Source: Pseudanabaena sp. PCC 6802 (GTDB lineage: Bacteria > Cyanobacteriota > Cyanobacteriia > Pseudanabaenales > Pseudanabaenaceae). Taken from it: a stretch of DNA of 64,000 nt. The translations under genes and the position numbers were made by a program. Every line of letters begins with the position of its first letter. The first letter of the stretch is position 1. Of this stretch, positions 30,643 through 30,754 are shown one piece after another. The stretch covers positions 4,121,793 to 4,185,792 of the forward strand of contig NZ_KB235914.1 in assembly GCF_000332175.1 (NCBI RefSeq). The letters run 5' to 3'. Under the pieces are notes generated by a model. That model did not search any database, was not told where the DNA came from, and saw nothing but the letters and a program-made list of their open reading frames with translations.

Positions 30643-30754
30643 ATAGCGGTTTTCAGATGAAAGCGAGAAGGGGGTTTGGGGGCGTTGCCCCCAAGAAGGG
30701 GTGGAACCCCTTCACCCCGTTAATAAAACCTGTTCTCAATTGAAAAACGCTATA
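30643..30754. repeat. MITE-like element, family A, minimal 112-bp form
   Basis: tatagcggttttcag...gggggtttgggggcgttgcccccaagaaggggtggaaccccttcaccccg...aaaaacgctata; 12-bp TIRs. Confidence 0.8.

Follow-up and report, generated by a model that had tools for sequence, protein, structure and literature searches.

Why do short, mobile-looking elements whose outer arms cannot be aligned with one another carry the same GC-rich sequence at their center? The question is raised by a stretch of 64,000 nucleotides from Pseudanabaena sp. PCC 6802 (contig NZ_KB235914.1, positions 4,121,793 to 4,185,792; hereafter the window, meaning the whole stretch), and in particular by a palindromic element at 30642, here called the focal copy. 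It is one of eight elements resembling MITEs (transposable elements that are miniature and have inverted repeats) in the window, which fall into three families according to their arms (A, B and C) and carry a common core with the shape of a three-way junction. The degenerate 21-nt core motif GGGGTKSMACCCCTKCACCCC, searched with at most two mismatches, was matched eight times in the window and in none of the 100 dinucleotide shuffles of it that served as the null.

The elements are 98-157 bp long, flanked by TA, without coding capacity and predicted to fold as long hairpins, and all eight copies are intergenic, near gene ends, with housekeeping genes as neighbors. Three generic features of MITEs, namely a length below about 300 bp without coding sequence, terminal inverted repeats (TIRs) and dispersed copies in differing flanks, are present. 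Family A has the termini TATAGCGG..CGCTATA (TIR TATAGCGgTTTTCA / TGAAAAaCGCTATA), family C the termini ATACCAATTTAAA..TTCAAATTGGTAT (TIR ATACCAATTTaAA / TTcAAATTGGTAT) and family B the termini TATAGCCGTAGACAG..CCTATTGGCTATA (TIR TATAGCC / GGCTATA, with further inner complementarity); the ends of the three arm families are also written TATAGCGG.., TATAGCCG.. and TACCAATTT... The three B copies are mutually 89-95% identical, and the half copy of family A at 38637-38693 is 93% identical to the right half of the copy at 6847-7003.

The first-pass annotation, made from the sequence alone, had named five of these elements, and their positions were confirmed. Its description of them as MITE-like (they are short, non-coding, intergenic, with TIRs and in many copies) and as differing arm types around one GC-rich core was likewise borne out. 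The two TIR types that it distinguished, A and A2 (the latter is family C), are both seen, but the third arm family, B (47635, 53693 and 39384), had been overlooked. It regarded the open reading frames (ORFs) 12771..12983, 46062..46244 and 30701..30970 as spurious; all three are present, and the repeats give rise to them, their GTG starts lying inside the cores.

The branched core, its arms and its hosts

An alignment of 46 distinct cores, taken both from metagenomes and from the window, gave the consensus GGGGT, (G/T)TGGGGGC-nnn-GCCCCCA(C/A), G(A/C)AGGGG-nnnnn-CCCCT(T/G)C, ACCCC, i.e., an outer stem of 5 bp together with hairpin 1 (8 bp) and hairpin 2 (7 bp), no base being unpaired at the junction. 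Paired cells accounted for 94.8% of the alignment, as compared with at most 65% when the partners were slid. Pair 29:45 is A-T in 23 cores, C-G in 20 and something else in three, and at pair 9:27 29 cores have G-C and seven have T-A; these two covarying pairs are the junction pairs that the search pattern left free on one side, whereas the stems were fixed by that pattern and are uninformative on conservation either way. When folded as single-stranded DNA, the whole elements are predicted to form long hairpins with the TIRs paired at the base and a branched tip on top (z = -4.3 to -6.9; focal copy -30.9 kcal/mol, z = -6.9).

The loops are inverted in place between near-identical copies, and each flips on its own; a flipped copy need not stand for a separate event, as it can itself multiply. 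Regarding the three B copies, the hairpin 1 loop reads CTGCG, CTGCG and CGCAG, and the hairpin 2 loop TGGAA, TTCCA and TGGAA(T). In the metagenomic family F0 (described below) hairpin 1 has TGC as its three central bases in 50 copies, whereas eight copies have GCA, its exact inverse, which makes GCA the commonest F0 variant despite the three simultaneous changes that it needs; family F2 shows, among five copies, each of the four possible pairings of the two loop states. The order from hairpin 1 to hairpin 2 relative to the arms was reversed in none of 51 F0 copies, and because this order never changes the differences are local inversions and not flip/flop of the whole palindrome, which was rejected on the same count. 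The two core forms of the first-pass annotation, ggggtggaacccc/ggggttccacccc and cgttg/caacg, are accordingly the same hairpins with a loop inverted in place.

Several conventional identities for the repeats were considered and rejected: intrinsic terminators (no T run follows either hairpin), CRISPR or tandem arrays (the copies are dispersed) and tRNA-derived elements (the only tRNA lies at 13891-13978). Rfam covariance models run over the whole window at the gathering score returned tRNA-Ser only, and nothing better than E = 1 was obtained for 12700-12960. It is improbable, though partly compatible with the reading favored below, that the core is kept as a signal of the host at the RNA or DNA level (processing or stability, a protein site or a replication pause) and that the arms merely spread it. 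Such a role would suit the strictly conserved stems, the compensatory changes at the junction pairs across lineages and the position of all copies between genes near gene ends. Nevertheless, there is no orientation bias (the copies at 46044, 47635 and 39384 are sense and those at 30642, 53693 and 38637 antisense to flanking transcription), the loops are freely inverted, the hairpins neither resemble intrinsic terminators nor match Rfam, and in a close relative with unchanged gene order these loci are without the elements.

Metagenome contigs of the Joint Genome Institute were scanned for GGGGGCNNNGCCCCCAMGMAGGGG, which yielded at least 120 loci (designated by L numbers where needed). After de-duplication at least 116 core instances remained, and all but three, which look like chance matches, lie at the center of MITE-like palindromes. 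At least 11 arm types, unalignable outside the core and flanked by TA or CTAG, were distinguished in hosts of 36-55% G+C from at least two cyanobacterial lineages. One metagenomic family, F0 (arm pair also written TACTCCCTTCCCA..TGGGAAGGGAGTA), comprises about 60 near-identical 118-bp copies in unrelated flanks; its host is close to Synechococcus sp. PCC 7502 (ThiC 96% identical), a member of the Pseudanabaena clade. One host of family F2 encodes a protein at least 90% identical to those of several Leptolyngbya strains.

The core was not found in Nostocales among the loci fetched, nor in the 80 loci retrieved with a DnaJ-TPR protein query, five Nostocales loci included. When a whole window element and the F0 consensus were compared with cyanobacterial plasmids by BLAST, no MITE copy came up, only the 44-nt module treated below or chance matches. 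Viral contigs gave only five copies of an unrelated repeat of 60% G+C and one contig of a giant-virus bin. The latter (L086, IMG/VR, 38% G+C) is AT-rich, does not look cyanobacterial and lacks the cyanobacterial palindrome GCGATCGC, of which the 64-kb window (47.3% G+C) holds 110 copies; at 4820-4945 it has tandem GC-rich hairpins, AAGGGGCTCTGCCCCTTCAACCCC and AAGGGGTTCCACCCCTTCACCCCC, that are almost identical to hairpin 2 together with the core's outer stem. Six metagenome contigs from relatives (L091-L096, 97% identity) start within about 240 nt of each other, 245-484 nt upstream of an NDP-sugar synthase gene; this upstream DNA (first 450 nt of the contigs) is unrelated to the window and includes pieces like single core hairpins (AAGGGGGTTTGGGGCAACGCCCCC), and the common start zone suggests another repeat that breaks assemblies.

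The core occurs in subtypes: AAGAA/TTCA in family A, ACGAA/TTCA in family C, and ACGCA/TGCA with inner arms TAGGAC..GTCCTA in family B. In other hosts the same subtypes are found with other arms, F1 being like A, and F2-F5 and F8 like B. The inner arms TTAGGAC..GTCCTAA are common to B, F2, F4 and related single copies, and are present in most of the B-like F2-F5 and F8. Among about 60 paired F0 ends no copy without the core was found, apart from deletion variants of three kinds, in which the two hairpins are fused at their GCCCC repeats and one hairpin is left (e.g., L140:540 and L183:3993). The pattern speaks for a core that was inherited and spread between hosts while the outer ends turned over, more than for repeated invasion or free recombination, because the subtypes track the arm families and the F0 ends all enclose the core or a deletion variant. 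Each arm family keeps its own core subtype, so that the set is not the freely combinatorial system that had been proposed.

A different history, in which the double hairpin of the core was a small cassette, mobile in its own right, that landed in the apical loops of pre-existing palindromes and colonized many unrelated MITE families independently, the invaded copies then becoming the masters of later bursts, appears rather unlikely, although each present family might descend from an invaded copy. It would explain why the same core stands at the exact center of at least 11 unalignable arm families in hosts of such different base composition; insertion into loops does occur, as the 44-nt module and an element of about 100 nt in L110 and L130 demonstrate, and fragments consisting of a single hairpin plus flank are found in other contexts (L091, L086). 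It is opposed by the lack of a core-less copy of any arm family, by the three core subtypes held by three families in one genome, each tied to its own arms, and by sequence beyond the core that is common to several families (TTAGGAC..GTCCTAA), as expected from common descent; moreover, the core was never seen by itself with clean boundaries.

Palindromic elements of about 100 nt were seen nested in MITEs in L119 (1142-1300), L124 and L180 (left arm of F4). In L110 and L130 the element of about 100 nt lies in the loop of hairpin 2, with an apparent 7-nt duplication, GGGGTGA, flanking it.

Putative target sites and probable mobilization

TA stands at the start and at the end of every copy (TA.. 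and ..TA), both in the eight of the window and in those of the arm families, which number at least 11; the termini differ otherwise. Where elements stand next to each other in arrays (L157 3048-3370, with F1, F1 and F8 in a row, and L166), neighbors have one CTAG in common; such a single CTAG is expected if TA is the duplicated target and not part of the element.

Two copies are missing from the relative L087 (GCA_943367755.1; 92% amino-acid identity), in which the order DnaJ-TPR, psbH, tatA, pth, NDP-sugar synthase is the same as in the window. Its 21 kb contain no core, and it is without the C element of 46044 and the B element of 47635. The spacer between pth and the synthase gene measures 86 bp in L087 versus 302 bp in the window. 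The window sequence from which the C element is removed (one TA left) aligns colinearly with the spacer between DnaJ and psbH of L087, although the junctions are too diverged for a duplication to be read.

Other searches for empty sites were negative. BLAST of 147 modelled sites against all loci gave only self-matches from tandem arrays; the upstream DNA of L091-L096 (97% identity) is unrelated, and loci around thiC like those of PCC 7502 have different neighbor genes. Regarding a near-identical second strain, exact look-up of the ClpP-like protein gave no match, and that of PsbH gave only the identical contig L228, which probably comes from the same strain. This short-read contig corresponds to window positions 46131-47664, and both of its ends lie inside elements.

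CTAG is a target of IS630 elements, and the MITEs resemble this group of insertion sequences (ISs) in their TIRs, in the TA at both flanks and, in two arm families (F1 and F8), in CTAG ends. They differ in that no transposase gene with matching ends was found and in that the center and not the ends is conserved. Elements of the IS630/Tc1-mariner type are defined by insertion into TA with duplication of that dinucleotide. ISY100, the IS630 member of Synechocystis PCC 6803, inserts into TA and duplicates it, and a primer ..CGC TA TAGTTTC.. and a TATATA excision junction have been reported (PMC2170065). Taken together, the primer and the junction suggest that the ends of ISY100 start with TAG (TA|TAG), like those of families A and B. 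We consider it moderately likely that the elements are non-autonomous MITEs mobilized in trans at TA sites by a transposase of the IS630/Tc1-mariner type.

According to this reading each element would be an imperfect palindrome of 100-115 bp whose TIRs are bound by a transposase encoded elsewhere in the genome, and it would be excised and reinserted at a TA dinucleotide, with duplication of that TA. The families would have been built around an inherited GC-rich T-shaped center while the outer arms were replaced or diverged, as the pattern of conservation suggests. The small hairpins may extrude often, and the loops may have been inverted repeatedly by template switching or by recombination within the stems. 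The best guess for the conservation of the center is that it aids folding or extrusion so that the ends meet, or that it is a binding site for a mobilization factor. The 44-nt module would have landed in the hairpin 2 loop of one A copy and one C copy.

Several observations weigh against mobilization of this kind. No precise empty site was found for any copy, so that duplication of TA is not demonstrated in the window. The window yielded no transposase, and no matching termini at an IS-length distance were seen in the 667 kb of loci from metagenomes; the TA/CTAG flanks are the sole basis of the assignment to IS630. The strict TIR of family B is only about 7 bp long. The junction between a solo family B-type terminus and the A element (6835-6850) has two TAs, where simple insertion into a flanking TA would give three. 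Finally, the conservation is the reverse of that in a typical MITE, the center being kept and the ends varying, and simple deletion derivatives of an IS would leave this pattern unexplained. As to the tests proposed in the first-pass annotation, the termini are consistent, whereas target-site duplications are suggestive only (TA flanks and the common CTAG in arrays), and the search for a cognate transposase gave none within the sequences just named.

The same annotation had considered an IS200/IS605 parent. Short GC-rich hairpins are the kind of substrate recognized by RAYT and IS200/IS605-type enzymes, and the feature conserved here is a pair of such hairpins. In addition, the loop inversions suggest frequent formation of single-strand hairpins, and IS200/IS605 elements are abundant in cyanobacteria. 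That the repeats are like repetitive extragenic palindromes (REPs) or the REP-based REPINs and are moved via single-stranded DNA by a RAYT or an IS200/IS605-type tyrosine (HUH) transposase is nevertheless very improbable. The TIRs and the TA/CTAG flanks found here are absent from IS200/IS605 elements and REPINs. REPINs have REPs at the ends and a variable middle, whereas here the middle is conserved and the ends vary. Neither a tnpA nor a RAYT gene is present in the window. The hairpins have no GTAG or CGTC tag beside them, as the 20-40-nt palindromes of REPs would, their flanks being GGGGTGT.., A(A/C)G(A/C)A and T(T/G)CACCCC (cf. PMC3733652). With their TIRs and TA flanks the MITEs likewise do not fit an IS200/IS605-derived palindromic element (PATE), which would lack TIRs, have subterminal hairpins and be inserted 3' of a fixed tetra- or pentanucleotide without duplication; IS200/IS605 elements were seen only as hosts of the inserted block.

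The 44-nt module in hairpin 2

The optional block of about 45 bp noted in the first-pass annotation is a genuine insertion of 44 nt. Its two copies in the window, one in an A and one in a C element, differ at one position and have the same site and orientation relative to the core; the opposite orientations that had been noted arise only from the inverted position, on the chromosome, of the entire 6847 element.

The module was shown to be a separate insertion that is found in unrelated contexts; it is a much smaller, apparently mobile hairpin element lying in the loop of hairpin 2. A Nostoc version, GCCAGCGCGGTCTTGGGGGTTCCCCCCATGAGCGACTGGCGGTG, was recovered at 23 sites in 18 plasmids (Nostoc, Fischerella, Stanieria, Halotia, Chondrocystis, Tolypothrix and Brasilonema). 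The contexts comprise an IS5-like transposase reading frame (by translation), a run of AGTAAAA-type repeats, the 3' part of tnpB, and the spacer between the divergent tnpB and tnpA of an IS605-group element. Among nine module copies the center GGTCTTGGGGGTT(T)CC.. (about 22 nt) is invariant and the stem variable, with compensatory changes at five of 15 pairs. The module forms a single hairpin; its flanks show no duplication, the 5' flank always ends in G, and the 3' end is often GTG. No match was found in phage genomes.

The effect on TnpB can be read from homologues of 396-398 versus 410-416 aa, which differ by exactly 15-17 residues between ..VK and GQLRK; the inserted segment is GASAVLGVSPMSNSR in some and ARQRGLGGLPHERLSQD in others. 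In a plasmid of Stanieria sp. NIES-3757 (L218 2501-2545) the module (45-51 nt) lies in frame at the 3' end of tnpB. When the forms P0121-P0131 and P0127-P0180 were compared, the inserted peptide differed by lineage, as if read in different frames. In characterized TnpB systems the 3' region of tnpB also encodes the guide RNA scaffold.

Very small mobile repeats (small dispersed repeats, SDRs), defined as 21-27-nt words, were reportedly described from Nostocaceae by Elhai et al. in 2008 and are also treated in PMC4390886 and PMC5861425. The module is like SDR4-6 in being tiny and hairpin-forming, in its precise insertion in unrelated contexts including other repeats, and in having an invariant center with a variable complementary stem, and it is also common in Nostoc-type genomes; this likeness is one of description. 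It differs from SDR5, which inserts within HIP1 (GCG^ATCGC), in that none of its sites is HIP1. No SDR has been reported outside Nostocaceae (PMC5861425), and the host of the module here is Pseudanabaena. With the Rickettsia palindromic elements the module has in common that a small palindrome lies in frame inside protein genes and adds a short peptide (15-17 aa in TnpB); it is unrelated to them in sequence and host phylum, and two to three times shorter. The Rickettsia elements were reportedly described by Ogata et al. in 2000.

Inventory, related systems and significance

The positions of the elements and their parts are summarized in Table 1. Pfam scans of 40 window ORFs revealed ordinary chromosomal genes only, mostly housekeeping, and no transposase, tnpA or RAYT gene. 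The table includes a solo terminus of the family B type, and a second one (16-17 nt, TAGCTGTAGATAGATCG) was observed in L087 at 8404-8420, exactly where the window has a family C element.

Table 1. MITEs, core parts and inserted modules in the window, and arm types of the metagenomic families
Feature	Position	Strand	Sequence or setting
Family A, focal copy	30642..30754	+	TA|TAGCGGTTTTCAG..CAATTGAAAAACGCTA|TA; flanked by ClpP-like gene (29839..30606, -) and Band7/SPFH gene (30965..33121, -)
Core of focal copy	30669..30720	+	three-way junction; outer stem GGGGT/ACCCC
Focal hairpin 1	30678-30692 (G5C..GC5 part)	+	TTGGGGGC-GTT-GCCCCCAA
Focal hairpin 2	30698-30710	+	GAAGGGG-TGGAA-CCCCTTC
Family A with 44-nt module	6847..7003	-	between convergent genes 4579..6756 (+) and 7417..8436 (-)
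44-nt module	6900..6943	-	AGGCAGGGCGGTCTTGGGGGTTCCCTGCTAGAGCCACTGCCGTG on - strand; hairpin 2 loop, between GGGG and TGGAACCCC
Solo family B-type terminus	6835..6850	-	TATAGCTGTAGACAGA; outward-facing from A element 6847, overlap in palindrome GCTATAGC
Family A, truncated	38637..38693	+	begins exactly at hairpin 2, ends at right terminus ..CTGCTA|TA
Family B	39384..39480	-	between psiE-like gene and ORF 39538..40416
Family B	47635..47732	+	TA|TAGCCGTAGACAG..CCTATTGGCTA|TA; between pth and NDP-sugar synthase gene
Family B	53693..53791	-	between branched-chain amino-acid permease gene and trigger factor gene
Family C	46044..46156	+	A|TA|CCAATTTAAATTG..TTCAAATTGG|TA|T; DnaJ-TPR gene upstream, psbH downstream
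Family C with 44-nt module	12752..12909	+	between divergent genes 11265..12635 (-) and 13097..13798 (+)
44-nt module	12814..12857	+	AGGCAGGGCGGTCTTGGGGGTTCCCCGCTAGAGCCACTGCCGTG; site GGGG^TGGAACCCC of hairpin 2
F0 arms			TACTCCCTTCCCAGTCAAAG..TGGTGGGAAGGGAGTA; metagenomic
F1 arms			CTAGTGTTGCAAACAC..GCTGTACTAG; metagenomic, bounded by CTAG
F2 arm			TATAGCTGTAGCCAG..; metagenomic
F3 arm			TATAGCGCTACGCAATC..; metagenomic
F4 arm			TATAGCCGTAATCAT..; metagenomic
F5 arm			TATCGCTTTTTTCAC..; metagenomic
F8 arms			CTAGTGCTTTGTCA..CCACTAG; metagenomic, bounded by CTAG

The window also contains other repeats. A palindromic family, TAACTGAnnTTACGYGGAA..TTCCRCGTAA..TCAGTTA, is present at 30755-30812, where it adjoins the focal copy, and at 38397-38567, where a longer copy stands upstream of the truncated A copy and seems to have a direct repeat, TTAGTAACTGA, on its two sides. 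A 78-nt repeat (79% identity; hairpin GGGTTTAGCATTTG..CAAATGCTAAACCC) occurs at 3706-3783 and 26189-26266, and both copies adjoin G-rich tandem repeats of the GGGGTT type or TGGGCGA; similar G-rich tracts lie at 22344-22468, and their complement at 27434-27476. A 32-nt tandem repeat with four copies, three of them 96-100% identical, is found at 26259-26403 after the TGGGCGA heptamer array at 26070-26200. Two protein genes are internally repetitive, i.e., the gene of a 1619-aa TPR protein (16457-21316; 24 copies of a 102-nt period) and that of a Rho_N/DUF4912 protein (4579-6756; a 15-nt period, GVGMS-like, over about 1 kb).

Nezha and the other cyanobacterial MITEs of Zhou et al. (2008), Wolk et al. 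(2010) and Lin et al. (2011), as summarized in PMC3184786, resemble the present elements in their length (100-170 bp), TIRs, stable predicted hairpins, intergenic position and filled versus empty sites between strains. They differ in having been described from Nostocales and Microcystis, and the comparison is one of descriptions. The texts consulted on cyanobacterial MITEs make no mention of a central junction common to many TIR families. The T-shaped terminal hairpins of parvoviruses such as adeno-associated virus (AAV), the double-hairpin elements of Allomyces mitochondria and the hairpin-loop inversions of chloroplast DNA are alike in form only, with an outer stem carrying two small GC-rich hairpins and with copies that differ by loop inversion. 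AAV flip/flop inverts the whole palindrome and its arms swap order, whereas here the hairpin order is fixed; no replication role is implied. Compared with known systems, the conserved center with variable ends, the in-place loop inversion and the three-level nesting are unusual.

As a tentative idea, to which we give limited credence, the T-shaped double hairpin could be under selection as a functional part common to a superfamily of cyanobacterial MITEs that target TA. Their mobilization would depend on it, for example because it nucleates the fold-back or cruciform so that the ends meet, or because it recruits a factor. Hosts would have retained it or received it from one another, whereas the ends bound by the transposase would have been exchanged many times. 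The loop flips would then record a hairpin-extruded intermediate, and the nested 44-51-nt hairpin elements, which insert into hairpin loops and in frame into genes such as tnpB, would with the MITEs make up a three-level hierarchy of parasites.

In cyanobacterial genomes the elements interrupt assemblies of short reads and give rise to spurious ORFs, and the nested 44-nt element, which is among the smallest apparently mobile units, is relevant to the mining of cyanobacterial TnpBs. MITEs are normally recognized by their ends and thought to work through them, the middle being deemed junk, whereas here the middle is conserved across at least 11 arm families. If it is true that the center is needed for mobility, this would show a requirement of MITEs beyond the transposase-binding ends, and the core would offer a simple means of finding an entire superfamily of elements by sequence.

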